A stretch of 61,992 nucleotides of DNA from an uncultured Gammaproteobacteria bacterium (GTDB lineage: Bacteria; Patescibacteriota; Microgenomatia; Levybacterales; UBA12049), in the NCBI GenBank assembly GCA_964512695.1, contig CAZEJU010000002.1:1-61992 (forward strand), in the 5' to 3' direction. The translations under genes were made by a program, and so were the position numbers. Positions 1 through 54,596 of this stretch are shown in pieces. Below the pieces are notes generated by a model, which made no database searches, was not told the DNA's origin, and saw only the letters and a program-made list of their open reading frames with translations. How positions within the stretch are numbered: the first letter of the stretch is position 1; every line of letters begins with the position of its first letter.

Positions 1-1005
<1,005 letters not shown>

Positions 1006-12869: not shown

Positions 12870-13967
12870 TTATATTACCTTAATCGTTCCCCGATACATT
12901 CCCATGCTGCACATGAATGCTAATTCTGTTGGCTTATCTGGAGCAGTAAATGTTACCGTATCTGAACTTCCCATAGGAACTACTTTCTGTACATTAAGTT
13001 GTGGAATAGTAAATGCTTGCGCACACCCTATGGCATCATTATTAACGATCTTTAACGTTACTTTCTGACCATGTTTTACAGAAAGTGTATTTGGGAAATA
13101 TCCTCCATCAGTAATTGTAATTATTGTTCCATCACCAATACTACGAATGTTTGTACCAGATGAATTCTCCTCGGAAGAACAAAAACTAATAGCACAGTGT
13201 ACAGCCTGTAAACCACTCTCAATGGTATATTTACTCCCTGAAAGTGCAACTGCATTATTGATATTAAAAATTGCTAATAAAACAATGGCATAGGCAGCTA
13301 CTTTCGTAAACCTCTCATGGAGTATATCTCCTAAGCGAGTCGTCAAATATCCTAAGAGAAAAAATACTGGTGAAGTACCCAAAACAAAAGTAAATAAGAC
13401 AACTGCACCCAGTATAGGGTTGCCGGATGCAATAGCTAATGCCATCATCGCTTGTGTAGTACCACAAGGAATAAAGATCGTTAATGCTCCCAGAAATGCT
13501 GGAACAAATATATCTTTTTTTTTTGATTGTCTTCTAATAAAGCGTGTTAAAAATCGTGGCGGTTGTATTACAAAATAACGAAATACTGGATGGACATTTA
13601 ACATGTTTAATGCTGTTCCTATCATGAAAAATGCTACAAGTATTTGAAGGAGAACTTGTGTTTGTATTGACAAAGTAAAAAAAGAACCTAACCAACCCAA
13701 AAAGAAACCCAAACCAGTATATGCAACTAATTTCGCAACTAAAAAAGAAATAATTGGCAATGCACTATTTCTATTCTTGAATCTTGAATCCTGCACCGCT
13801 TCTGAGAAGCTAGTCTTGTTGGAGGAAATCTTGAATCGTTCAACTAGCTTCTCTTGCTCATGCTGCGCAAGTGTAGCTGCCAACAAACCTCCTTGTACTG
13901 CCATACACGTTAGACCACCTGTTAATAACCCTGTTGTAAAAACTGTTAGTAAATTTACGTTTTCCAT
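12870..13967 (-). CDS. Polytopic membrane protein (TauE/DsbD_2-like) fused to a C-terminal cupredoxin-like domain
   Basis: About 6 TM helices with a CGTTQAM motif. The C-terminal ~100 aa is a beta domain ending FMCSMGMYRGTIKVI. It sits in the copper operon context. It also carries a heptamer block at 13774-13794. Confidence 0.6.
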   Translation of the reverse strand: MENVNLLTVFTTGLLTGGLTCMAVQGGLLAATLAQHEQEKLVERFKISSNKTSFSEAVQDSRFKNRNSALPIISFLVAKLVAYTGLGFFLGWLGSFFTLSIQTQVLLQILVAFFMIGTALNMLNVHPVFRYFVIQPPRFLTRFIRRQSKKKDIFVPAFLGALTIFIPCGTTQAMMALAIASGNPILGAVVLFTFVLGTSPVFFLLGYLTTRLGDILHERFTKVAAYAIVLLAIFNINNAVALSGSKYTIESGLQAVHCAISFCSSEENSSGTNIRSIGDGTIITITDGGYFPNTLSVKHGQKVTLKIVNNDAIGCAQAFTIPQLNVQKVVPMGSSDTVTFTAPDKPTELAFMCSMGMYRGTIKVI

Positions 13968-14052: not shown

Positions 14053-16599
14053 TTATACTACGCTCTTTTTCAACCTTAGAGAATTTATAACAACGGATAC
14101 AGAACTAAATGCCATTGCAGCTCCAGCGAAAACTGGACTTAAAAGAATACTGTAAAAAGGATATAAAATACCAGCTGCAAGAGGAATTCCGATAATGTTA
14201 TAAATAAATGCCCAGAAAAGATTTTGTTTTACAGTTCTCATTGTCAATTTTGAAATACGAATAGCATGTGAAACTTTTTGAATATCACCTTTTAAAATAG
14301 TTAATTGAGCAACACCAATAGCGACATCTGTTCCAGTACTCATAGCAATTCCTATATCAGCAGTAGCTAAAGCAGGTGCATCATTGACACCATCCCCTAC
14401 CATCGCGACGAGATTGCGTCGTTCTGAATTTCCAATTTCCAATTTCCAATTTCTAGTCGATTTGACATTTGACATCTTTAATTTTTCAACAATCTCTGCT
14501 TTCCCATCAGGCAATACTTCTGCATATACTTCATCAATACCAACTTTTTCAGCAATATATTTTGCTGTGTTTTTATCATCTCCAGTTACCATAAGAACTT
14601 TTATGCCTTTTTTATGAAGTTCGTCAACCGCTTGTTTTGCATTTTTTTTAACAGTATCCGCAATAAATACAGAACCTAAAAAATTATTTCCATCAGTTAA
14701 AAAGATCGGTGTTTTCCCTGTTTTTGTATATGATGTAATTTCGTCATTATCTATAGCTATCCCTAATTCTTTCATGTATGTCATATTTCCTGCGAAATAT
14801 ACTTTCTTTTCAATAGTTCCCGTAACACCTTTCCCTTGAACAATACGAAAATCTGTGACATCTGATAATGAGATGTTTTCTTCTTGTGCTTTTAGTAATA
14901 TTGCCTGCGCTAAAGGATGTTCTGATCCTTTCTCAAGAGACGCTAATATTTGTAATAAACTTTGTTCACTTTTTATTTTTGAATCGTAATCTTGACTTTT
15001 AACTTTTGAGTTTTGAGTTTTGATAATATCAGTTACAACAGCTCTCCCCGTTGTTATCGTTCCAGTTTTATCCACCACTACCGTCGTAACATCACGTAAT
15101 TTTTCCAAACTTGCAGCATCTTTCACGAGAATTCCCAGCTCTGCTGCTTTACCCACGCCGACAATAATTGCAGTCGGTGTTGCTAAGCCTAATGCACACG
15201 GACAGGCGATAACTAATACTCCAACAAAACTTGTTAAACCAAGTGTTAAAGCATCAGTAAACGGTATGAATTGTATCCCAACTACCAACCAAACAATAAA
15301 AGTGGCAAATGCCATAAACATCACAACGGGGACGAACACAGCTGAAACTTGGTCAGCCAAACGTTCAATAGGGGCTTTGGAGTCTTGGGCATTTTCTACC
15401 ATCTGAACAATATGCGCGAGCAATGTATCTTTTCCTATTTTCGTTGCTTCTATGATCAAGACACTTTGTTGATTAATCGTACCACCCACAACTGCATTAC
15501 CAACTGTTTTATCTACTGGAATCGGCTCTCCAGTTACCATCGATTCATCAATAGATGAATCCCCCTCAATAATTTTCCCATCGGTTGGTATTTTACTACC
15601 GGGCTTAACTATTAAAACATCTCCCACTTCCACTTGCTCTATTAGCAACTCAACTTCCTTATATATTTCACCTTTTTTATATTCTTGAATCGTAAATCTT
15701 GAATCATGAATCGATTTTAATACCAATGCAGTTTTTGCTTGCAGCTGTATAAGTTTTTCCAACGCTTCTCCAGTTTTTCTTTTAGATGCAGCCTCTAGAT
15801 ATTTACCGAAAAGTATAAATCCAATAACGACAATCGTTACATCATAATATAACGCTTCAGATAAGCCGAGATTCTCTGCAGTTTGTGGAAAAAAAAGAAT
15901 AAATGAAGAATAAAGATATGAAGTTAATGTTCCCATTCCCACTAGTGTATCCATACTTGCTTTTCGCACTTTGAGAAACCGTAAAAATGCGTCAACAAAC
16001 AGTCTACCAGGCATAAAAAGAACAAAAGTAGCGATGAAAAATAAATGCATTTGATAAAACTTCATCGGAATTGGAAACGCTGGAAGCTCTGGAAGGAACT
16101 GAGAACTAACTTCCCACATCATTGCAAAAAACACAAAAATTGCTAAAGGAAAAACGAACATTGCTTTCTCTTTTTCTTTTTGTAGCTCAGCTTCTTTCGG
16201 TGGTTGGGTATGAAAAAAGTGATCCACCTCTCCATTATGCATCGAGCGATGTATTACCGCTTGCATGACGAAACCATCCGGCATCAACTGTGGTTTTTGT
16301 TTGCTTTCAACGTCCTTGTACTTTATTCTTGAATCTTGAATCCTGAATCCTGGATCTACTTCCTCTAAGGAATACCCATACGATTCAAGCTTTTTATTCA
16401 TTTCGTCAACGGAAATTTTAGAAGGATCAAATGTAATCTTCGCTTTTTCTGTAGCAAAGTTAACGCTACAAGCGGAAATACCAGGAAGTTTATTTAGAGT
16501 ACGCTCAATGTTAGCTTTGCAACTTGCACAATGCATTCCTTGCACAGGAAACGTATCAGTAACAAATTGTTCTGTATTGTCTTTGTGTTCTTTGTTCAT
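14053..16599 (-). CDS. copA: Copper-translocating P1B-type ATPase
   Basis: N-terminal HMA ([11 protein letters not shown]), [19 protein letters not shown] and [14 protein letters not shown] motifs. It contains four low-complexity inserts encoded by 7-nt repeats. Confidence 0.95.
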
Positions 16600-16641
16600 A
16601 CTTCATACTTCATACTTCTTACTTCTTACTTCTTACTTTAC
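16594..16641. repeat. Tandem heptamer array (CTTCATA/CTTCTTA) spanning the copA start and the DUF305 stop
   Basis: The sequence ttcatacttcatacttcatacttcttacttcttacttcttactttac has a strict 7-nt period. Confidence 0.85.
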
Positions 16642-17196
16642 TCTGTACCACACTTCTCTCCATTGCTTTAACTGTTTTGTATTATTTAAAAGTAGTGTAA
16701 TAACGCTATTCGCTTCATTAAGTACCTCTGACCTGTACGATTTCGTCATTACTTCTTTCGCAACTATTATCGCTTCTTCGTGGTGGATTATCATTGCATT
16801 GAGGAAACGTAGATCGAATTGTTCATCTGCAGAACCGAGGTTTACTTTCTGAAATTTAACTATTTTCTCCGAATTATTGTACCACCTTTTTTTCCAAGCG
16901 TACAATCTTTCTATTCCCTCTCGATCAATTTTTATGATCAAATCTGATAAGTCTTTAATTTCACCTCTTTGAGAGTTTCTAATAGCTTGTTCTGACATAT
17001 ATATTGCACTTTGATGATGTGCTATCATTCCATTTACAAAACGCAAATCAAGATTTCGATCTGCCTTTCCTAAATCCATCATGGGAGATTTTCTCTCCTG
17101 CTCCATCGCAGCATACTCTGGAGTAAGATAAAATCCAAAACCAATTCCAATTAAGTAAGCAATAATAATGAGTGCTGTTGCTAATGATTTATTCAT
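16633..17196 (-). CDS. DUF305 family protein (copper-resistance associated)
   Basis: Signal anchor plus two MI(A/I)HH..AI repeats typical of DUF305. Confidence 0.75.
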   Translation of the reverse strand: MNKSLATALIIIAYLIGIGFGFYLTPEYAAMEQERKSPMMDLGKADRNLDLRFVNGMIAHHQSAIYMSEQAIRNSQRGEIKDLSDLIIKIDREGIERLYAWKKRWYNNSEKIVKFQKVNLGSADEQFDLRFLNAMIIHHEEAIIVAKEVMTKSYRSEVLNEANSVITLLLNNTKQLKQWREVWYRVK

Positions 17197-24359: not shown

Positions 24360-25838
24360 TTAAAACTCAAGACTGAGTTGATTCGTAGGAACTTCGCTTC
24401 GCTCTTTTACACCTTCTCCTTCTTGCCAAATATGAACAGTACCATATTCTCCATCATACCCAGGGTCTACTGTAAGAACGCCCCTTCTCACTCTCTCTAC
24501 TGTTTGAGCGATTCTCTCTGCTTGTGTTGCTCCCGACTGACGGGCTATTGTTTCTATATCTTCTAACCTTGTCTTTAAAAGCAGATTAATTTCTGAATCT
24601 GTTTTACACATTTCTGTATATAACTTTTTAATTTTTATACTGGTTGGTGTCATCTCTAAGGCTGCTGCGAGGATTTGTTCTAGCCTTACTAACTTTACGA
24701 AAGGAGGATGTGATCGGGAAATATCAGTATGCCACTTAACCCCACTTTCACTAATCTTTTCTGTATAGTTTTTTGCAAATTCTGCACCTGCAAGTTGTTC
24801 AATTCTGACTGCTACTCCTTCTGTTAGTTCGCGTTTACAGACAGAACATACGCTTCCCTTTTCATCGGAATCTTTTGGTGACAATGAAATCTTACATGCT
24901 CTATGACCCGAAAAATGATACTTCCCCTCTTCAGGATAGAATTCGATAGTATAGATAATTCGGTTATCTGTTTTCGTTTTTCGGTTTTCGGCTTCCTGTT
25001 TTTCAATTTTCGGTTCTTCAGTTCGTTCAACTGATTGACCGATGACCGACTGACTGCCAGCTGAAAACCGACCACTGAAAACAGATAACTGACTCGGACG
25101 CATAATCGCCTCTCTTAACTTTGAATATGTTGGAAGACTACCTTCCAATTCGAATACCGTTGCCTCGCGTGCCATATTCGCAGGACTATGTGCATCAGAG
25201 AAAGACAATATCGAACGATTCGCTAATTCACCTATGCGCCAATTCATCTCGGGATCACTGGAAATACCTGTTTCTATTCCGTAAATATACCGACTGAACT
25301 CACCAAACGCTTCATCTAAACTATCAAATCCTGATTTTGATCCGTAAACTCCAAAATGTGGCGTCCATACATGACAAGGGATTAGCATACACCGTTCATC
25401 AATTCCAAGTATAAGTTCGAATAAATCTTTCGACGATAAACCAATAATGGGTCTTCCATCTGCATTGAGGTTTGCTCCACGTTTAGCTAATGTCTCATTA
25501 ATTTTCTGGGCAATCTGAAGATTTGGTGAGAAAATGAGATTATGAATTCTCCGTAACTTACCTCCTTGTTTATAAATACTCGCAATCTCAGTTGAAAGAA
25601 GAAAATATACCTCTTTCTCCTTATTTTCCCCGTCTTCTCTTAATCTGAAGATCCCTTCTTCTGCTTCTTCCAGCTGTGCGCTTATTTCTTTAAACCATAC
25701 AGGATGTGTAAAATCAGATGCTGAAAGAATGTCTAAACCTTTTTGTCTGGCATATTCAGCCATTACAGGAAGCGTCATTTGCTGAGAAACGGCGCGTGAG
25801 TATTTCGAATGAAGGTGCAAATCGGCTACATATTGCAT
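24360..25838 (-). CDS. Endonuclease Q-like PHP-domain nuclease
   Basis: Collinear with archaeal EndoQ as I recall it: DLHLHSKYSRAVS, RIHNLIF, GRPIIGL, HVWTPHFG, SFSDAHSP, then the zinc finger region GKYHFSGHRAC...CSVCKRELTEGV and a C-terminal DPGYDGEYG. It carries a ~44-aa repeat-encoded insert. Confidence 0.75.
   Translation of the reverse strand: MQYVADLHLHSKYSRAVSQQMTLPVMAEYARQKGLDILSASDFTHPVWFKEISAQLEEAEEGIFRLREDGENKEKEVYFLLSTEIASIYKQGGKLRRIHNLIFSPNLQIAQKINETLAKRGANLNADGRPIIGLSSKDLFELILGIDERCMLIPCHVWTPHFGVYGSKSGFDSLDEAFGEFSRYIYGIETGISSDPEMNWRIGELANRSILSFSDAHSPANMAREATVFELEGSLPTYSKLREAIMRPSQLSVFSGRFSAGSQSVIGQSVERTEEPKIEKQEAENRKTKTDNRIIYTIEFYPEEGKYHFSGHRACKISLSPKDSDEKGSVCSVCKRELTEGVAVRIEQLAGAEFAKNYTEKISESGVKWHTDISRSHPPFVKLVRLEQILAAALEMTPTSIKIKKLYTEMCKTDSEINLLLKTRLEDIETIARQSGATQAERIAQTVERVRRGVLTVDPGYDGEYGTVHIWQEGEGVKERSEVPTNQLSLEF
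24961..25093. mobile_element. RPE/MITE-like palindromic element inserted in-frame in the EndoQ gene
   Basis: The terminal inverted repeat CGGTTATCTGTTTTC (24961-24975) matches the reverse complement of GAAAACAGATAACTG (25077-25091) at 14/15 positions. The interior consists of TTTTCGG and CTGACCG unit runs around a CAGTT...AACTG core. Homologous copies are at 39750-39872 and 53655-53764. Confidence 0.7.
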
Positions 25839-27717: not shown

Positions 27718-29496
<1,779 letters not shown>

Positions 29497-29508: not shown

Positions 29509-29590
29509 AGTCCTAAGTTACAAGTTCTAAGTCCTAAAATAAATTTACACTCTGTGACTTAAAACTCATGACTTATAACTTGTGACTTCC
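29509..29590. repeat. Inverted pair of heptamer runs (AAGTYAY family)
   Basis: agtcctaagttacaagttctaagtcctaaaat faces gtgacttaaaactcatgacttataacttgtgacttcc. Confidence 0.8.
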
Positions 29591-29930
29591 AATGATGTTT
29601 TTACAATCTTAGTTAATATATTTATAATTTCTTCGTTCTCTATTAGTAAGTTTTCTAATTTTTCTTTTATATCAGGATTAAGCTCTTTTATCAAACGTAA
29701 CCAATATCTAGTCTCTCTTGCTTCCTTCTTTGCTATATTCATGCAATATGCAAAATCTTTCTTTGAGTTCGTCCCCAGTGCTTCTTCAATATTTGCACCA
29801 ATTGAAGTCGACGATCGAATTATCTGTTTTGAAACAATTACATTTCGAACGTTTTTGATAAAAGTTTTGTTAGCTTAATAACACTCAGAGAAAACTCAAA
29901 AGATCTGTTAGCAATAATTGATTCTTTCAT
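29566..29930 (-). pseudogene. Four-helix-bundle protein (PF05635 / Avd-like, '23S rRNA IVS protein'), frameshifted
   Basis: My hand translation gives MKESIIANRSFEFSLSVIKLTKLLSK... stopping at 29838-29840. A different frame continues ...VRNVIVSKQIIRSSTSIGANIEEALGTNSKKDFAYCMNIAKKEARETRYWLRLI... to the stop at 29566-29568. The junction is at an A5 run (29852-29856). It is absent from the ORF track because neither piece reaches 60 aa. Confidence 0.65.
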
Positions 29931-29969
29931 GCAGACTTATAACTTACGACTTGTAACTTAGGACTTCTA

Positions 29970-31079: not shown

Positions 31080-31499
31080 TTATCTCTTCTCGCTTTTTTG
31101 TGATTGATGAAGTCGCCATATAATTCTACCGCATTCTTCCTTCATTTGTAGCAACTTATCATAATCAGGTTGTTTAATCAAACCATGCTGCTTAGAGAAG
31201 TAAAGTAAATATTCAACTTCAGCTAAAGAACCAAGTGCTATAGAAAGAAAATGCCGGAATTCATTTTTATTAATACGCGCATATCCTTCGATTATATTTA
31301 AAGGGACTGACAAAGCAGCCCGCTTTAACTGAGATGTTATACCATATAACTCTTCTTGTGGAAATAGTAAAGTAGCAACATATATAGCAGAAGCAAGTTG
31401 ATCAGATTTTTGCCATGCGATCAACTTCTTGTAGCCCTGTACATACACAATACTTATTTCTTGTTGCTTATCGCTGATCACTAGATTCAATAGTCGCAT
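31080..31499 (-). CDS. Four-helix-bundle protein (PF05635 / Avd-like)
   Basis: YKKLIAWQKS...SQLKRAALSVPLNIIEGYAR.NKNEFRHFLSIALGSLAEVEYLL, the family signature. The probable start is the GTG at 31448, because the first ~17 codons are repeat sequence. Confidence 0.8.
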   Translation of the reverse strand: MRLLNLVISDKQQEISIVYVQGYKKLIAWQKSDQLASAIYVATLLFPQEELYGITSQLKRAALSVPLNIIEGYARINKNEFRHFLSIALGSLAEVEYLLYFSKQHGLIKQPDYDKLLQMKEECGRIIWRLHQSQKSEKR

Positions 31500-31536: not shown

Positions 31537-31845
31537 ATGGCAAAAACGAAAAGAGAAGAAGAAAAAGAGAAAGAAAAAGGATTACCTGTACTTGTTATGC
31601 GCCAAATGGTAACACTATCGACAAGCGGTTTTGGGCTTGTAGCAGCTCTCGCGTGGAATAATGTTATTCGGGAATTGGTAGATCAATATATTGCTAAATG
31701 GATTCCAAATGGCGGAGGGCTCATCTCACTTCTTCTCTACGCTGTGATTATTACCGTCCTTGCTGTGTTAGTTACGACTAATCTCACGAAAACACTACAG
31801 AGGCTTGAACAGCTTGAGGAAAAATTCGAGGGTAAAAAATCATAA
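31537..31845 (+). CDS. Small membrane protein, hypothetical
   Basis: 102 aa with a Lys/Glu-rich N-terminus and two TM helices. Confidence 0.45.
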   Translation: MAKTKREEEKEKEKGLPVLVMRQMVTLSTSGFGLVAALAWNNVIRELVDQYIAKWIPNGGGLISLLLYAVIITVLAVLVTTNLTKTLQRLEQLEEKFEGKKS

Positions 31846-32793
31846 CACTTCTTTCATAACAAAAGGAATTTCATTTGCTAGATCTGACGAATTAAATGTA
31901 TACCCAACTTTTCGGAATAAGCTATCCCCTGCTTTTTTATTTAAATAGCTTCCTACACATGCACTTACATAGAGTTCATTCTTACATGCTAACGCTGCAA
32001 GAAGTCCAGCAAGCACATCACCAGTTCCGCCTTTCGTCATACCTGCATTTCCTCCAGCAATGGAGATACATGCTGAAGGGGAGCAAATAACATCCTCCTC
32101 CCCTTTTAGCAAAATAATACAGTTATATTCTCTTGCGATAAGAGATAAGTGATAAGCAATAAGGTCTAAATCTATTTTGTTTTTCATATCGCTTATTGCT
32201 TGTTGCTTATCGCTAAACAGCATTTCAAACTCTCTCTGATGCGGTGTGATAACAACGTTCCCATTCAACTGTTTCAACCACTCAGGATCCATCATCTGTA
32301 AACTCCCGCCATCGATAACCCATTTTTTATGAGAATACTTATCGAGCAAATATTTTGTTAACCAATATGTCTGCTCCCCCTCATCAGACAATTCATTAAT
32401 GACTTTTAGGTCATAAGTTTTAAGTCCTGAGTTATAAGTATTTTTTTTATTTAGTACTTGTGACTTAGGACTTAAGACTCCTTCACTTCTCATCAATCCC
32501 GGTCCTATGAGTATACAGTCAGCTTCTTCAGCATAATCATCTATCTTCTCTCTAGGAATAACGATACCATTACGAAATTCTGTTTTTGCTTGTCGAACAA
32601 TTTCGTTATTTTCAGGAACTGAAGCATAAAATACCATGTCGACAATTTTACTTGCGATAGTTAGAGCCCATAAGGAAGCAGCGTGAAATAAATGAGAACC
32701 GCCAACGAGAAGCAACTTCCCATTCTGCCCTTTATGAGAATCTGAAGGTGGAATATAGAGATTCTTTAGTAATTGGGGATCAAATTCCTGCAT
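31840..32793 (-). CDS. nnrD: ADP-dependent NAD(P)H-hydrate dehydratase (YjeF C-terminal type)
   Basis: HKGQNGKLLLVGGS ... GGNAGMTKGGTGDVLAGL. Two hairpin-forming repeat inserts lie within the CDS. Confidence 0.85.
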   Translation of the reverse strand: MQEFDPQLLKNLYIPPSDSHKGQNGKLLLVGGSHLFHAASLWALTIASKIVDMVFYASVPENNEIVRQAKTEFRNGIVIPREKIDDYAEEADCILIGPGLMRSEGVLSPKSQVLNKKNTYNSGLKTYDLKVINELSDEGEQTYWLTKYLLDKYSHKKWVIDGGSLQMMDPEWLKQLNGNVVITPHQREFEMLFSDKQQAISDMKNKIDLDLIAYHLSLIAREYNCIILLKGEEDVICSPSACISIAGGNAGMTKGGTGDVLAGLLAALACKNELYVSACVGSYLNKKAGDSLFRKVGYTFNSSDLANEIPFVMKEVL

Positions 32794-37256: not shown

Positions 37257-38397
37257 TATTTTTTATTTTTTCATTAATAAAACTTCTCATTTCTTTCATA
37301 AACCGTTCTTTTGAAAACTTCTCAGCCTGCTCTTTACAAACCTTCGGATCAAATTTCATAGTTTCAAATTTTTTAATCGCTTTAGTTAAACTTTCCACAG
37401 TCGGTTCACTAAAAAACACACCTGTTTTTCCATCGATAACTGTTTCTTTATATCCTCCACCATAATATGCGATAACTGGTGTACCACAGAACATGGATTC
37501 CACGGGTGTAATTCCGAAATCTTCATCAGTCGCAAGCGCGAGAAATGCTTTTGCATGTGTATATAAATCAATCAACTCTTCATCAGAAACTCTTCCTAAA
37601 AATTCTATATTCTCATTTGCAGTCTCGGATATTTTCTGCGCCACAGAAGAATATCCAGAAGATACCCCAGCAATTTTTAGTTTGATACCGAGTTTATTCG
37701 CCGCCTCGACAGCTAATTGCAATCCTTTTCCACCTACTAAACGCGCAACGATAAAGTAATAATCCTTCTTGTGATTTTCCATTTTCGATTTTCCATTTTC
37801 CATTAGCAAGTTCACAGGTGGATAAATTACTGTGGATTCTCGGCGATAGAATTTTGCTATACGTTTCTTAACTTCTTCTGAGTTAGCGATAAAATAATGT
37901 ACTCGTTGTGCCGCCCGGAAATCATACATTCTCATGAAGTGTCCTATGATTATTCCGTACAGTTTTATTGGCCAATACCGCTGCCATTCTACAGATGTCG
38001 TATATCCATATAACCACCGAGGGGGCGTATGACAGTAACAAACCTCAATCGGACGTGTAACTTGTGACTTGTAACTTGTAACTTCCTTTACTACCCCTTT
38101 CGTAATATACCAAGAGGCTGAAGTGATGACGATATCGTACCCTGAAAAATCAAAGCTCTTCCAAATGAGCGGAGCTAAAAAACGAAGTGGACTATGAAGT
38201 TTAGTGGGAAAAAAAGGAATCTTATGAACCCACGAAGTAATAATCCGTCGATGTTTAAACCGATCATATGCTGGTGAATCCTTTTTATAAAACGAGGTAT
38301 AAAGAGGAGCATCAGGAAACATTTCGCACAGCGCTTCCAGAACTCTCTCTGCTCCCCCGTATTCTTTTAGATAATCATGGACTAATGCTACTTTCAT
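37249..38397 (-). CDS. Glycosyltransferase family 4 (GT-B fold)
   Basis: EDFGITPVESMFCGTPVIA, the E-x7-E region. Two heptamer inserts are present. Confidence 0.78.
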   Translation of the reverse strand: MKVALVHDYLKEYGGAERVLEALCEMFPDAPLYTSFYKKDSPAYDRFKHRRIITSWVHKIPFFPTKLHSPLRFLAPLIWKSFDFSGYDIVITSASWYITKGVVKEVTSYKSQVTRPIEVCYCHTPPRWLYGYTTSVEWQRYWPIKLYGIIIGHFMRMYDFRAAQRVHYFIANSEEVKKRIAKFYRRESTVIYPPVNLLMENGKSKMENHKKDYYFIVARLVGGKGLQLAVEAANKLGIKLKIAGVSSGYSSVAQKISETANENIEFLGRVSDEELIDLYTHAKAFLALATDEDFGITPVESMFCGTPVIAYYGGGYKETVIDGKTGVFFSEPTVESLTKAIKKFETMKFDPKVCKEQAEKFSKERFMKEMRSFINEKIKNNA

Positions 38398-39194: not shown

Positions 39195-40232
39195 TTATAT
39201 GTCCATTAATCCTAATTGCTGGCCTTTCTTCTTTTCTTCAATCTCTTTAAATAACGGGTTAAAGCGTTTTAATAAACTATTAAACCCATACTGCTCGAAC
39301 ACTTCCAAAGCTCCTTTTATATTCAATTCAGACGTTTTACAGGTTTCCAGCTCACAAGTAATAGGAACATCTCGTAAAATAGTTGCTAGCTTTTTGGCAA
39401 GCGCTGCCTGTTCAGCATCTGTCGCTAATTTCTCAGCGACTTTCGGCGGTAATTCGCCAATGCGTTCATACAGCGCTTCAAAAGTACCAAAATCTTTTAG
39501 TAAACTTGCAGCAGTTTTCGGACCTATACCTGTTACACCTGGATAACCATCTGAAGGATCACCGATTAACGCTTTATAATCGACAAACTGCGATGGTTTT
39601 ACTCCATACTTCTCCTCTACTTTTTTTTCATCATACAAAACAGTTTCTTTCACACCAACGACCGGCATCAACACCTTTGTATTTGTGTTCACAAGCTGTA
39701 ACAAGTCCCTATCCCCTGTCAGTATTATTGTTTCGATATGCTCAGTAATCGGTTTTCTGTTTTCAGTTTTCTGTATCTTGTTTACCAGTTTTCTGTCTAT
39801 CCGATTCTGACTGTTCAGTTGATCAACTGGCTGACCGGTCGCTGACGACTGATCACTAGCAACCGACAACTGCACTTGCGAAGCAAGTGTCCCTATCACA
39901 TCATCAGCTTCAAAACCTTCCACTGCAAATATAGAGATATTCATTTTTTCTAAAGCTTCCCGAAGCATCTCGAATTGAACCGCTAAATCATCTTCCATTT
40001 TAGGACGATGCGCATGGTAGCCAGCATACATTGCTTGTCTGTAAGTAGGAGCTGAGATATCGAAACTGACGATAACATATTCTGGTTGTAGATCTGAAAT
40101 GACAGTAAAAAACATACTAAAAAATCCATACATGGCATTAATTACAGTACCGTCTGGAGCTGTAAGAGGTGGAAGCGCATGATACGCACGATGTACAATC
40201 GCATTACCATCAATTAAAAGAAGCTTAGCCAT
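39195..40232 (-). CDS. 5'-3' exonuclease (stand-alone Pol I N-terminal / FEN-like domain)
   Basis: LLLIDGNAIVHRAYHA, FEADDVIGTLA, TGDRDLLQLV and an H3TH region GVTGIGPKTA. There is a ~41-aa repeat-element insert between FEADD..LA and TGDRD. Confidence 0.88.
   Translation of the reverse strand: MAKLLLIDGNAIVHRAYHALPPLTAPDGTVINAMYGFFSMFFTVISDLQPEYVIVSFDISAPTYRQAMYAGYHAHRPKMEDDLAVQFEMLREALEKMNISIFAVEGFEADDVIGTLASQVQLSVASDQSSATGQPVDQLNSQNRIDRKLVNKIQKTENRKPITEHIETIILTGDRDLLQLVNTNTKVLMPVVGVKETVLYDEKKVEEKYGVKPSQFVDYKALIGDPSDGYPGVTGIGPKTAASLLKDFGTFEALYERIGELPPKVAEKLATDAEQAALAKKLATILRDVPITCELETCKTSELNIKGALEVFEQYGFNSLLKRFNPLFKEIEEKKKGQQLGLMDI
39750..39872. mobile_element. RPE/MITE-like element, second in-frame copy (in the 5'-3' exonuclease gene)
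   Basis: The left end CGGTTTTCTGTTTTC is 13/15 identical to the EndoQ-copy left end. The core is the palindrome CAGTTGATCAACTG followed by CTGACCG/CTGACGA runs. The span is 123 nt, or 41 codons. Confidence 0.65.
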
Positions 40233-40610
40233 GTAGGTATTGTAACATGTGGTTTAGTTCTGTGTTAGAGGTTAGTAGTAAGGTGTTAATTCTTAGAAGT
40301 TATTTAGGAGGTCCGAGTTACGAAAACAGTTTTAATATAAGCTGCTTCAAATTCCGAAGCTCTCATAAAATGTATATAAACACCTACATCCAGAGCTTTT
40401 GATTGGGCCAAAAGCTGATGTAGGCTTTTACATACGTTCTACATTAATCTCCTATCGCTACTAACAATTTTCTTCGCTGGAGAAGCAATCTCTTTCCTTG
40501 TCAACTGACCACAAAAGGAATCCAGAATCTTGAAGTCGCTTCATCTCGATCACCTGGCTGTCCCCTTATTAACAAGCAGTACGCAATAATAATTACTTAA
40601 AGCTTAAAAT

Positions 40611-40666
40611 TTGTAACTCATAACTCATAACTCATAACTTATAACTTGTAACTTATTACTTCTTAT
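40611..40666. repeat. Tandem heptamer array (AACTCAT/AACTTAT/AACTTGT), about 8 units
   Basis: ttgtaactcataactcataactcataacttataacttgtaacttattacttcttat, directly upstream of the promoter at 40677. Confidence 0.9.
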
Positions 40667-51437: not shown

Positions 51438-52259
51438 CTACAAATTAACCCGTTCCACCTGTATTGTAGTTCCTAGTAATTTTTTTGCAACTGTCGAAAA
51501 TGTTTCTACGCTTCCTGATGTAGAGAATGCATGCTGTGCTTGTTCTGCTTCCACTAATTGGTTATTCGATGCCAATACTCTTCGTGCATGACGAGCGATA
51601 GCACTACTTGGCTCAAGCAACACAACCTGTTCTCCGAGTATGTGCTGTATTTCCATAGCCATAAAAGGATAATGCGTACACCCTAGCGCGAGCGTATCAA
51701 CGTCATTTTGTATAAAAGGAATTAACACATCGCGAAGAATATGATTAACTTCTTTGCCATAAGTTTGTCCATCTTCTATAAGGGGAACAAGTTTATCTGT
51801 GCCTATGTTTATAACTGTACATTTCTGAGCAAATTTTTGTATCAACTGTTTTTGGTAGCTACTCTCTGCTGTTCTTACTGTAGACAGTATCCCTATGCGC
51901 ATATTTCTAGTTTTTTCGGCTGCTGTTTTAACGACAGGTACAGTTCCTATTATAGGGATCATCGGATAATCGTTGCGTAGTCTATCAAGACTCGACACTG
52001 TAATAGTATTACAAGCAACGATAATCAGCTTCACATTTCTTTGAAGCAAAAATATAACGAGACGCTTTGCCAAGCTATAAATTTCTTGAGGAGACTTTGT
52101 TCCATAAGGAATATTTTGGGAGTCAGCGATATAGAGAGTGGACTCGTGAGGTAACTCTTTTACTACTTCTTTCCAAACAGAAAGTCCACCAACACCAGAA
52201 TCGACAATACCAATGGGACGGGGAATTGAGAATTGAGAGTTGAAAGTTGAGAGTTGCAT
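51438..52259 (-). CDS. murI: Glutamate racemase
   Basis: IGIVDSGVGGLSV, VACNT and LGCTHYP catalytic Cys motifs. The first ~12 codons are heptamer-repeat sequence. Confidence 0.9.
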   Translation of the reverse strand: MQLSTFNSQFSIPRPIGIVDSGVGGLSVWKEVVKELPHESTLYIADSQNIPYGTKSPQEIYSLAKRLVIFLLQRNVKLIIVACNTITVSSLDRLRNDYPMIPIIGTVPVVKTAAEKTRNMRIGILSTVRTAESSYQKQLIQKFAQKCTVINIGTDKLVPLIEDGQTYGKEVNHILRDVLIPFIQNDVDTLALGCTHYPFMAMEIQHILGEQVVLLEPSSAIARHARRVLASNNQLVEAEQAQHAFSTSGSVETFSTVAKKLLGTTIQVERVNL

Positions 52260-52303
52260 AGATAGTTTTTAATTCTCAATTCTCCATTCTCAACTCTCAA
52301 TTC
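52223..52303. repeat. Inverted pair of GAGTTGA/GAATTGA heptamer runs bracketing the murI start codon
   Basis: The left arm 52223-52256 is coding and the right arm 52271-52303 is 5' UTR. The ATG (52257-52259) sits in the 14-nt loop. Confidence 0.85.
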
Positions 52304-52309
52304 TTTTTG

Positions 52310-52383
52310 TACCAGGGGCGGGGATCGAACCCGCGACCTCAGCGTTATGAATGCTGTGCTCTAACCAGCTGAGCTACCCTGGC
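52310..52383 (-). tRNA. tRNA with CAU anticodon (Met elongator or Ile2/lysidine type)
   Basis: The reverse complement is GCCAGGGTAGCTCAGCTGGTTAGAGCACAGCATTCATAACGCTGAGGTCGCGGGTTCGATCCCCGCCCCTGGTA. It gives a cloverleaf with anticodon loop TTCATAA. It lacks the three G:C pairs of initiator tRNAs. CCA is not encoded. Confidence 0.88.
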
Positions 52384-53654: not shown

Positions 53655-53764
53655 AGTTATCAGAAATGGGTTGCTTGTTCTGTTAATCAGATTGTGAATA
53701 AAACTGGCAAACTGAAAACAGACGAACTATAATCTGAAAATTGAGAACAGAGAACAGATAACTA
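53655..53764. mobile_element. RPE/MITE-like element, intergenic copy upstream of truB
   Basis: The ends are AGTTATCAG ... GAACAGATAACT. The interior CTGAAAACAGACGAAC and GAGAACAGAGAACAG runs are related to the EndoQ and exonuclease copies. Confidence 0.55.
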
Positions 53765-53774
53765 GGTAACACAT

Positions 53775-54596
53775 ATGCGCTACATAATTCCGATCTATAA
53801 ACCATTGGGAATGACACCGTTTGAAGTTATAAATATATTTAAAGACCGTCGCCCCATATATAAAAACGAAACGATTAGTTACGCTGGCAGGCTTGACCCT
53901 ATGGCTGAAGGACTCCTTCTTTTACTCGTAGGTGATGAAAATAAGAAAAGGAAAAATTATGAGGATCTACAAAAAACCTATGAATTCCGCGTGCTTCTTG
54001 GAATAGAAACAGACACCTACGATATACTAGGGAAAATTGTCCATGTTCCAAGTTCCATTTTCCATTTAGATCAAGCTTTTAAAGAAAACCAAGTATTTAT
54101 GTCTTTGGAAAATGGAAAATTGCAAATGGAAAATCTCCTGCATTCTTTTACTGGTAAAAAAATGCAGGCCTACCCTCCCTACTCTTCAAAAACAGTCAGT
54201 GGCAAACCTCTGTACTGGTGGGCTCGCCAGAATCGTTTAGATGAGATCGAAACTCCGAGAAAAGAAATTGAAATATATTCGTTAGAGTTACTCGCTAAAG
54301 AAAAAATTATGATTCAAGAATTACGATTCCTTATTCAAGAAAGAATCAGTAAAGTTAATGGGGATTTTAGACAAAAAGAGATTCTCCGTGAATGGAATAA
54401 GTTCTTTAACGATATAACACTTAAACAGTATAACAATTTTCCTGTAATGCATTGCAGAGTAACGTGTTCAAGCGGGACCTATGTTCGTTCACTCTCGCAT
54501 GAGATAGGTAAACAATTAGGTGCTAGTGGAATCGCTTTACAAATCATCCGGACAAAAGTTGGAGAATATACAATCGAAGAAGCTTTCAGACTATAG
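53775..54596 (+). CDS. truB: tRNA pseudouridine(55) synthase
   Basis: YAGRLDPMAEGLLLLLVG (catalytic Asp) and the TruB core. There is a heptamer-encoded insert (LENGKLQMEN). Confidence 0.88.
   Translation: MRYIIPIYKPLGMTPFEVINIFKDRRPIYKNETISYAGRLDPMAEGLLLLLVGDENKKRKNYEDLQKTYEFRVLLGIETDTYDILGKIVHVPSSIFHLDQAFKENQVFMSLENGKLQMENLLHSFTGKKMQAYPPYSSKTVSGKPLYWWARQNRLDEIETPRKEIEIYSLELLAKEKIMIQELRFLIQERISKVNGDFRQKEILREWNKFFNDITLKQYNNFPVMHCRVTCSSGTYVRSLSHEIGKQLGASGIALQIIRTKVGEYTIEEAFRL

Follow-up and report, generated by a model that had tools for sequence, protein, structure and literature searches.

A palindromic heptamer-array repeat translated in frame within an endonuclease Q gene of the candidate phyla radiation

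The DNA considered here, referred to throughout as the window, is a stretch of 61,992 nt from contig CAZEJU010000002.1 of assembly GCA_964512695.1, in which 53 open reading frames (ORFs) were considered. The nearest proteins of its host genome carry the names Levybacteria and Roizmanbacteria, of the candidate phyla radiation (CPR). Within the endonuclease Q (EndoQ) gene of this window lies an imperfect palindrome that is read through as part of the protein. The segment probably belongs to a family of dispersed palindromic repeats, non-autonomous and named type A in what follows, which spread by copy-and-insert and is tolerated in protein loops. An original prediction, made from the letters of the sequence, had likened it to Rickettsia palindromic elements (RPEs) and to MITEs, the miniature transposable elements bounded by inverted repeats; the view of it as an RPE-like repeat, palindromic and non-autonomous, whose translation is a disordered loop, proved essentially right. 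Type A belongs in turn, as one family, to a wider class of palindromes made of heptamer arrays, which pervades the host CPR genome and its relatives. The features on which the argument rests are these:

24360-25838, minus strand: endonuclease Q family protein of 492 aa, host gene of the main element
24960-25092, minus strand: type-A element, a palindrome of heptamer arrays read in frame with EndoQ and encoding about 44 aa (SQLSVFSG...ENRKTKTDN)
24961-24975, plus strand: left terminal inverted repeat CGGTTATCTGTTTTC, a 14/15 match to the right terminus; family consensus TCNGTTATC
25077-25091, plus strand: right terminal inverted repeat GAAAACAGATAACTG, pairing with CGGTTATCTGTTTTC at 14/15 positions
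39195-40232, minus strand: 5'-3' exonuclease (Pfam 5_3_exonuc_N and 5_3_exonuc), host gene of the second copy
39743-39872, minus strand: second type-A copy, a decayed palindrome, in frame in the exonuclease gene (VQLSVASDQSS...TENRKPITE)
53655-53764, plus strand: third type-A copy, decayed and intergenic, ending 10 nt before the truB start codon at 53775

The EndoQ insert, its copies and its family

The element measures 133 nt and consists of two 64-nt arms (24960-25023 and 25029-25092) that are 70% complementary and separated by 5 nt, with CAGTTCGTTCAACTG at the centre of the palindrome. Its terminal inverted repeats are as first described, and its autocorrelation at a lag of 7 nt is 0.49. 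Folding, which had been proposed as a check, placed the element far beyond the shuffled sequences used as reference: the DNA fold reached -31.6 kcal/mol against -12.7 +/- 2.4 for the shuffles (z = -7.7, with 0 of 200 shuffles equal), and the RNA fold in the mRNA sense reached -53.7 kcal/mol (z = -6.8). The ORF at 24360-25838 runs through the element on the minus strand and yields the expected peptide of about 44 aa, ...MRPSQLSVFSGRFSAGSQSVIGQSVERTEEPKIEKQEAENRKTKTDNRII....

The identity of the host gene was borne out both by a sequence match to PfuEndoQ (5zb8; E = 2.7e-33) and by an AlphaFold model (mean predicted local distance difference test score, or pLDDT, of 84) with target-normalised TM scores of 0.85-0.87 against 5zb8 and 7k30, the latter also PfuEndoQ. 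The alignment jumps from query residue 246 and Pfu residue 224 to query residue 310 and Pfu residue 247, leaving about 41 extra residues, and archaeal EndoQ, as aligned through PfuEndoQ, is without such a segment. The insert lies between the ...REAIM helix and the EFYPEEGKYH strand, where it takes the place of a short linker from the PHP domain to the zinc-finger part. The original prediction had archaeal EndoQ running directly from one of these landmarks to the other; the insert does fall at the predicted place, but about 20 native residues also lie between the two. In the model, residues 251-289 have pLDDT values below 50, whereas the helix before them (238-246) and the strand after them (293-300) are modelled with confidence.

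In the exonuclease, the N-terminal Pfam match (residues 3-121, profile positions 1-119 of 164) ends where the insert starts, and against 6vde, the 5'-nuclease of M. smegmatis Pol I, the query advances from residue 121 to 167 while the chain advances only from 141 to 146, so that the insert appears as a gap; it sits in a turn analogous to the EndoQ site. The mean pLDDT of this model is 89, falling to 69 over residues 121-130 and to about 50 over 131-160. Both genic inserts are therefore modelled as low-confidence loops in otherwise confident structures, in line with the surface-loop position first suggested, and their being gaps against solved homologues likewise supports the view that they are tolerated loops.

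The copies in the exonuclease gene and upstream of truB had been part of the original prediction, and both were recovered by an nhmmer profile built from 18 copies that all came from other genomes and included no sequence of the window. It matched 24961-25091 (E = 2.6e-28), 39743-39872 (E = 6e-20) and 53655-53763 (E = 1.4e-15), with the next best match at E = 2.2; the claimed copies are thus real, exceed chance similarity and number exactly three in the window. Both genic copies share one reading frame of the element (QLSV...ENRK). The hairpin is largely lost in the exonuclease copy (fold z = -1.2) and in the copy upstream of truB (z = -1.8).

To find copies elsewhere, GTDB genomes were scanned for a pattern of the two termini and JGI metagenomes for a pattern of one arm, and the profile search was then applied. 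Run against 5.8 billion proteins, a profile made from the insert peptides gave only two short matches; since short, biased peptides cannot reach significance in a search of that size, the catalogue of host proteins was made from the DNA scans. Type-A copies are about 115-133 bp long and run from TCNGTTATC to GATAACNGA. Each arm comprises about eight degenerate heptamers (GTTNTCN on the left, NGANAAC on the right), the terminal unit being TCAGTTA/TAACTGA and the inner units GTTTTCN/NGAAAAC. A full-length alignment of 20 copies, drawn from different genes and genomes, has 39 invariant columns and a 7-nt rhythm, and in all 20 the heptamer variants, one 8-nt unit among them, follow the same order. 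A conserved A-A mismatch also gives the element an orientation. No covariation was detected between the arms: RNAalifold found 0 compensatory pairs, and in a permutation test pairing lay below the permutation mean at 8/8 variable positions tested. Paired arm columns are invariant, and variable arm columns are not paired. An Rfam 15 scan of the window returned only the 23S rRNA and two tRNAs, none of them overlapping the element.

The metagenome scan yielded 13 strong full-length copies, all in low-GC contigs, and the GTDB scan six more, from Levybacteria, Collierbacteria and Gottesmanbacteria metagenome-assembled genomes (MAGs) and from two contigs binned as "Gammaproteobacteria". Copies are present in many CPR/Microgenomates genomes. 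Within these compact genomes, type-A copies were seen in two kinds of place only, namely protein loops and the spacers that run from a stop to the next start. In-frame hosts are of six kinds (EndoQ, 5'-3' exonuclease, DHH-like phosphoesterase, RluA-type pseudouridine synthase, P-type ATPase and a 608-aa protein of unknown function), and an exonuclease copy in another genome occupies the same site as that of the window. Of the 12 copies outside genes, six take up all of the space between two ORFs of the same direction; a stop lies 2-10 nt before one end and an ATG 1-9 nt after the other. Three more adjoin one gene end within 10 nt, bringing the total near a gene end to 9/12, and 7/12 have an ATG 1-10 nt past their end. 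Stop-to-start occupancy of this kind is typical of the copies L127, L032, L123, L042, L007 and L026, and of the window copy at 53655-53764. No genic copy has a stop in the frame of its host gene, whereas almost every frame of the non-genic copies contains 1-5 of them; excision as an intein, an intron or from the mRNA was rejected on this basis, with the caveat that the argument carries an ascertainment bias.

Host proteins of type A often have further inserts that resemble other palindrome families, as seen in L047 (exonuclease; GARAKGQGTRVKGQ...SLSPQPSALSP), L054 (RluA; STTGNINILGN...DTFDTRDTF), L046 (DHH-like) and L004. Two apparent in-frame hits in high-GC contigs, L021 and L085, were discounted, their translations looking non-genic by eye and high G+C favouring long spurious ORFs. 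Most hits of the strict two-termini GTDB scan were also set aside: these came mainly from outside the CPR and proved to be GTTATCA/GTTTTCA arrays around unrelated centres, related to type A by unit and not copies of it. Such inverted arrays are mostly intergenic, often have hairpin-forming centres and are spread over many phyla, including Poribacteria (L005, L008, L012-L014, L020, L025, L027 and L028), Bacteroidota (L006, L011, L023 and L024), Acidobacteriota (L015, L018, L019 and L022) and others.

Reuse of insertion sites by unrelated palindromes

Comparison with orthologues was made on the 120 best EndoQ homologues (P0001-P0120) and on 120 exonuclease orthologues, an insert being counted when it reached at least 10 aa at the single site in question. 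Few of the EndoQ homologues are named; these belong to Levybacteria, Saccharimonadales and unclassified Patescibacteria, together with MAGs binned to other phyla. Insertless EndoQ orthologues are 443-447 aa long and read AIMRKGGLKN-RIAYTIEF across the site, and syntenic empty sites are visible at the DNA level (AIMRKGGLKNRI). The site is filled in 43/120 EndoQ orthologues by at least nine unrelated types of insert, comprising type A (about 12 orthologues), types B and C, and six more. Type B encodes the peptide VEDRRLKV...STFHHLPSN and type C encodes TTGTTGITS...DTRGTLDTRDT, and the DNA of both is also palindromic. Type B is periodic at 7 nt, with lag-7 matches of 0.50-0.52 against 0.23-0.29 at lags 6 and 8, whereas type C is not (0.29) and has, as judged by eye, a repeat unit of about 9 nt.

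On a neighbour-joining tree of EndoQ, built without support values from an alignment that left the insert out, the insert types are polyphyletic and filled and empty sister pairs occur. At this very codon position, the nearest relative of the window EndoQ, P0002 (70% identity), has type B, a heptamer palindrome of another family. Type-A copies are not grouped by the gene that holds them, the copy in the window EndoQ being 63% identical to a Levybacteria EndoQ copy and 72% to a copy in another gene, and the left junctions of type-A EndoQ inserts vary between lineages. Taken together, the polyphyly, the closest orthologues that lack an insert or hold another palindrome, the differing junctions and the lack of clustering by host gene argue for recurrent insertion and not for an ancestral segment. 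A segment shared by EndoQ orthologues of unrelated lineages had been named beforehand as evidence against insertion, and this was found in part, in that some EndoQ orthologues of other Microgenomates lineages, Levybacteria among them, have a homologous segment at the site; the distribution is nonetheless polyphyletic.

The exonuclease repeats the pattern, with one site filled in 46/120 orthologues by families A, B, D, E, F and H, all shared with EndoQ, plus others. When EndoQ and exonuclease proteins with an identical listed length of longest contig were assigned, by this proxy, to one genome, all three genomes with both hot spots filled held the same family in both (A and A in the window, A and A in a 45,734-bp contig, D and D in a 526,548-bp contig); in three other paired genomes, one of the two sites is empty. 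As read from these sequences, the pattern points to recurrent insertion at a few favoured sites by families active in particular genomes. Insert lengths at the hot spots form a continuum.

Two minor insertion sites also occur in EndoQ, after core columns 72 and 234, and are filled in 19/120 and 6/120 orthologues, respectively; LPAGKAGPKSETNSNDKNP and EISNDSASPAGGKFPISNFQ are examples of such inserts, and the window protein has none at either site. One orthologue, L155 (P0056), has a slightly longer "empty" site that reads RLYTKSDTKNK, with DNA CGGTTATATACAAAGTCAGATACC... and a type-A-like start and end (CGGTTAT...CAGATACC). This site may be a deletion scar, and some of the "empty" sites may formerly have been filled.

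Known repeats and competing explanations

The closest parallel is with RPEs, several families of which occur in frame in unrelated housekeeping genes as well as in non-coding DNA (Ogata et al. 2000, summarised in PMC10969869). Like these, type A is a palindrome of roughly 100-150 bp that belongs to one of several families, occupies in-frame and non-coding sites, adds 30-50 residues at positions compatible with the fold, is missing in some orthologues and has no known transposase. Three features that characterise the RPE class were found here, namely a palindrome of 100-150 bp, dispersed copies in genes and in non-coding DNA, and an insert that some orthologues lack at a fold-compatible site. 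The two are likened by their described behaviour and not by sequence, type A occurring in CPR/Microgenomates without a link to Rickettsia. Type A also differs in that its arms are degenerate heptamer arrays, that unrelated families reuse its hot spots and that half of its non-genic copies fill stop-to-start junctions.

The likeness to MITEs is looser. Bacterial MITEs that can fuse in frame include Correia, ERIC, BOX and those of cyanobacteria (PMC10969869), and type A shares with MITEs a small size, a non-coding nature, terminal inverted repeats, dispersal and occasional intragenic location. It differs in that no target-site duplication and, in the window, no related insertion sequence or transposase was found, and in that the whole element is palindromic and not its termini alone. 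Of the double label first proposed, the RPE half stands, while a strict definition of MITEs does not fit, with no target-site duplication among 22 copies and no transposase in the window; RPE-like is the better label.

At the level of the repeat unit, type A resembles the TAACTGA heptamer repeats of Beggiatoaceae, Cyanobacteria and Bacteroidetes, which carry LSVISYQ and LITDN- signatures and lie just upstream of starts (MacGregor 2015, PMC4679880). These are short direct arrays of 2-6 units, nearly all intergenic, with one inverted case (PMC4679880). Type-A units are related to these TAACTGA/AAACTGA heptamers, being the same or one base off (TCAGTTA/TAACTGA at the termini, AAACNGA inside). Their translations carry the matching signatures, LSV.S.Q in one sense and K.ENRK.TDN in the opposite one, TGA stops appear in the forward sense, and the units share the patchy occurrence across phyla and the frequent position a few nucleotides upstream of start codons. 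They differ in forming two long inverted arrays of defined length (115-133 bp) and fixed unit order, often inside conserved enzymes. The STRR heptamers of cyanobacteria presumably belong with the TAACTGA-type repeats as a related system.

Other small repeats fit less well. The REP/REPIN elements served by RAYT, of 20-40 nt or in doublets of about 100 nt, were rejected as a match, type A being about 130 nt long, often intragenic and built of heptamer arms, and no Y1-transposase domain being present in the window. MIRUs are direct tandem units, not palindromes, and sit in the intergenic spacers of operons, tight to the upstream stop and the downstream start. Type A shares this location in operon spacers abutting stop and start, but MIRUs are not known to occur inside conserved protein domains. 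PARCEL is an amphipathic motif of 25 residues that is repeated in tandem within ORFs whose function is unknown, often those of membrane proteins (PMC2996958). It resembles type A as horizontally spread coding DNA with dyad symmetry, and was rejected as an identity, since type-A inserts occur singly, are about 40-45 residues long and lie in enzymes whose family is known. In a literature search of a library that was not exhaustive, no account of elements that are palindromic or resemble MITEs came to light for CPR/Patescibacteria.

If type A is a spreading repeat, copies would be generated by some copy-and-insert process and would last only at sites that can take 125 bp more without much damage. 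Within genes, only stop-free variants would survive, as a hydrophilic, disordered loop of about 44 residues with which the enzyme still works. After insertion, a copy might decay, or shrink and grow by heptamer slippage. Either the insertion process or the subsequent filter would have to favour a few sites strongly, these being reused by unrelated palindrome families. As for the mover, a recombinase specific for hairpins or single strands, or template switching linked to replication, could be imagined, and both are guesses.

Several findings weigh against this reading. Insertion is concentrated at one site per protein (43/120 EndoQ and 46/120 exonuclease orthologues), and neutral tolerance alone may not explain such concentration. 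Non-genic copies usually have stops in the host frame, so that random new insertion would mostly truncate the gene. Apart from the terminal unit of the element itself, no target-site duplication was seen on either side of 22 copies, and none of the 53 window ORFs, 12 of which have no Pfam match at all, matches a transposase-like Pfam family. The three window copies are only 61-67% identical to one another and thus give no sign of recent activity in the host genome. In one genome, whose EndoQ has a type-B palindrome, the hot spot of the exonuclease (L152:643-1596) is taken up by (AAGTTCA)x4, a purely direct array translated as QVQSSKFKVQS, which indicates that slippage in situ also shapes these sites. 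Finally, one pair of Levybacteria MAGs shows a conservation unlike that of a neutral, vertically inherited insert. Their orthologous EndoQ genes carry the element at the same junction (L016:3974-4088 and L017:4960-5074) with 108/117 positions identical (92%), while the genes share 74% of amino acids, 70% of nucleotides and only 44% of fourfold sites (P about 1e-28 for the element against the fourfold rate). This pair could stem from recent re-insertion, gene conversion, local gene transfer or constraint at the nucleic-acid level.

These points give some room to a different account, one we regard as unlikely, in which a CPR system or selective regime places or maintains palindromes unrelated in sequence at the same codon-level positions in housekeeping genes and at operon junctions. 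It could take the form of insertion guided by structure or site into "landing pads", where families specific to a genome would displace each other, or of a hairpin function, for instance in pacing or coupling translation; either variant, if true, would explain the presence of at least nine families at two hot spots and the above-synonymous conservation of one copy.

Also unlikely is the explicit rival that the host keeps the palindromes for a function at the nucleic-acid level, possibly as an mRNA hairpin for the pacing or coupling of translation or as a site for an RNase or regulator where domains or genes meet, or that delivery is directed by site or structure, the hot spots then reflecting targeting or selection. 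The same two loops do hold at least nine unrelated palindrome families in many lineages, and nine of the 12 non-genic copies lie within 10 nt of a gene end, six of them bridging stop to ATG, much as TAACTGA repeats are placed (PMC4679880). In the conserved pair, moreover, 9 nt differences produce 6 amino-acid changes, so that constraint or recency would act on the DNA or RNA and not on the peptide, and between the window and Levybacteria the element is 74% identical and its flanks 62-63%. Against this, many close orthologues lack the insert, some copies are decayed, the arms do not covary, and the families share no sequence and have no Rfam match. The high conservation comes from one genome pair of the same field site, where local gene transfer or conversion could yield it.

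An improbable alternative is that nothing moves, and that heptamer microsatellites expand in place by slippage at fragile sites, fold-back priming turning them into palindromes and the families being convergent. Heptamer repeats are over-represented in bacteria, a fact put down to slippage (PMC4692102). In the window, period-7 tandem arrays number 30 against 0 in shuffles, with at most one each for periods 5, 6, 8 and 9, and they use many different units. Direct-only arrays inside genes (27844-27890 and 37769-37811), the (AAGTTCA)x4 array of L152 and the continuum of insert lengths also favour expansion in place. Independent slippage would not, however, reproduce the nhmmer E-values of 1e-15 to 1e-33 among type-A copies, nor does it fit the ordered unit variants, the 8-nt unit and the A-A mismatch that these copies share across genes and phylum-level CPR groups, or the occurrence of the same family at both hot spots within a genome.

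The notion that the segment is an ancestral, vertically inherited loop of Microgenomates EndoQ that has simply diverged is highly improbable, for although type-A inserts stand at the same site in about 12/120 orthologues, some of them 55-58% identical to the window protein, and the "empty" site of L155 looks scar-like, the insert types are polyphyletic with filled and empty sisters, the nearest relative holds a different family, homologous copies are found in unrelated genes and intergenic DNA and show no clustering by host gene, and archaeal EndoQ lacks the segment.

Translated palindromic DNA in frame within essential enzymes is a textbook oddity of Rickettsia. The same behaviour in CPR bacteria suggests a general route to new protein loops in bacteria with small genomes, and heptamer-array palindromes may account for some of the variation in length among CPR proteins. 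Type A also provides a defined element to which the TAACTGA/STRR heptamer repeats, puzzling in their spread across phyla, can be linked, and palindromic inserts provide practical markers for strain typing. The reuse of hot spots and the one case of above-synonymous conservation make targeting versus tolerance a testable question, which existing metagenomes could answer.

Other heptamer arrays and features of the window

About half of the heptamer arrays of the window lie in frame within genes, and at least 11/53 ORFs hold them, including those for a copper P-type ATPase (four arrays), DNA ligase, Fpg, a glycosyltransferase and MurD. Examples, apart from the direct-only arrays given above, are found at 14420-14461, 16582-16648 and 40604-40666. 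The heavy-metal P-type ATPase gene (14053-16599, minus strand) has four in-frame arrays (AATTTCC, TTGACTT/TTGAGTT and TCTTGAA twice) and a fifth at its start, and the TCTTGAA unit is seen again at 13775 and 32855. Four further palindromes have units other than those of type A:

54036-54134, plus strand: palindrome of another family, unit ATTTTCC/GGAAAAT, in frame in truB, with 29-nt arms that are 79% complementary
32410-32479, minus strand: palindrome of another family, unit AAGTCCT, in frame in the NAD(P)H-hydrate dehydratase gene (31840-32793)
29509-29588, no strand assigned: AAGTCCT-type palindrome, intergenic, adjoining the DNA ligase start
52208-52311, no strand assigned: palindrome with unit TTGAGAG/CTCTCAA, across the 5' end of the Asp/Glu racemase gene and abutting a tRNA gene (52310-52383)

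The Pfam TruB_N match of the truB product spans 152 residues against 134 profile positions. A gene for a "23S rRNA intervening sequence protein" (PF05635) lies at 31080-31499, and an apparent truncated copy, called by eye from its conserved four-helix-bundle motif, lies on the minus strand at about 29590-29930. This truncated copy is flanked by the AAGTCCT-type palindrome at 29509-29588 and by a half-array at 29934-29966, and the locus may be a larger relative or a carrier of the palindromes. The window begins within a 23S rRNA gene (1-989, minus strand; the 5' 860 model positions), with a GAATTCT heptamer array (1114-1141) just upstream. Of its two tRNA genes, one lies at 1398-1470 and the other, at 52310-52383, is the one that abuts the palindrome at 52208-52311.

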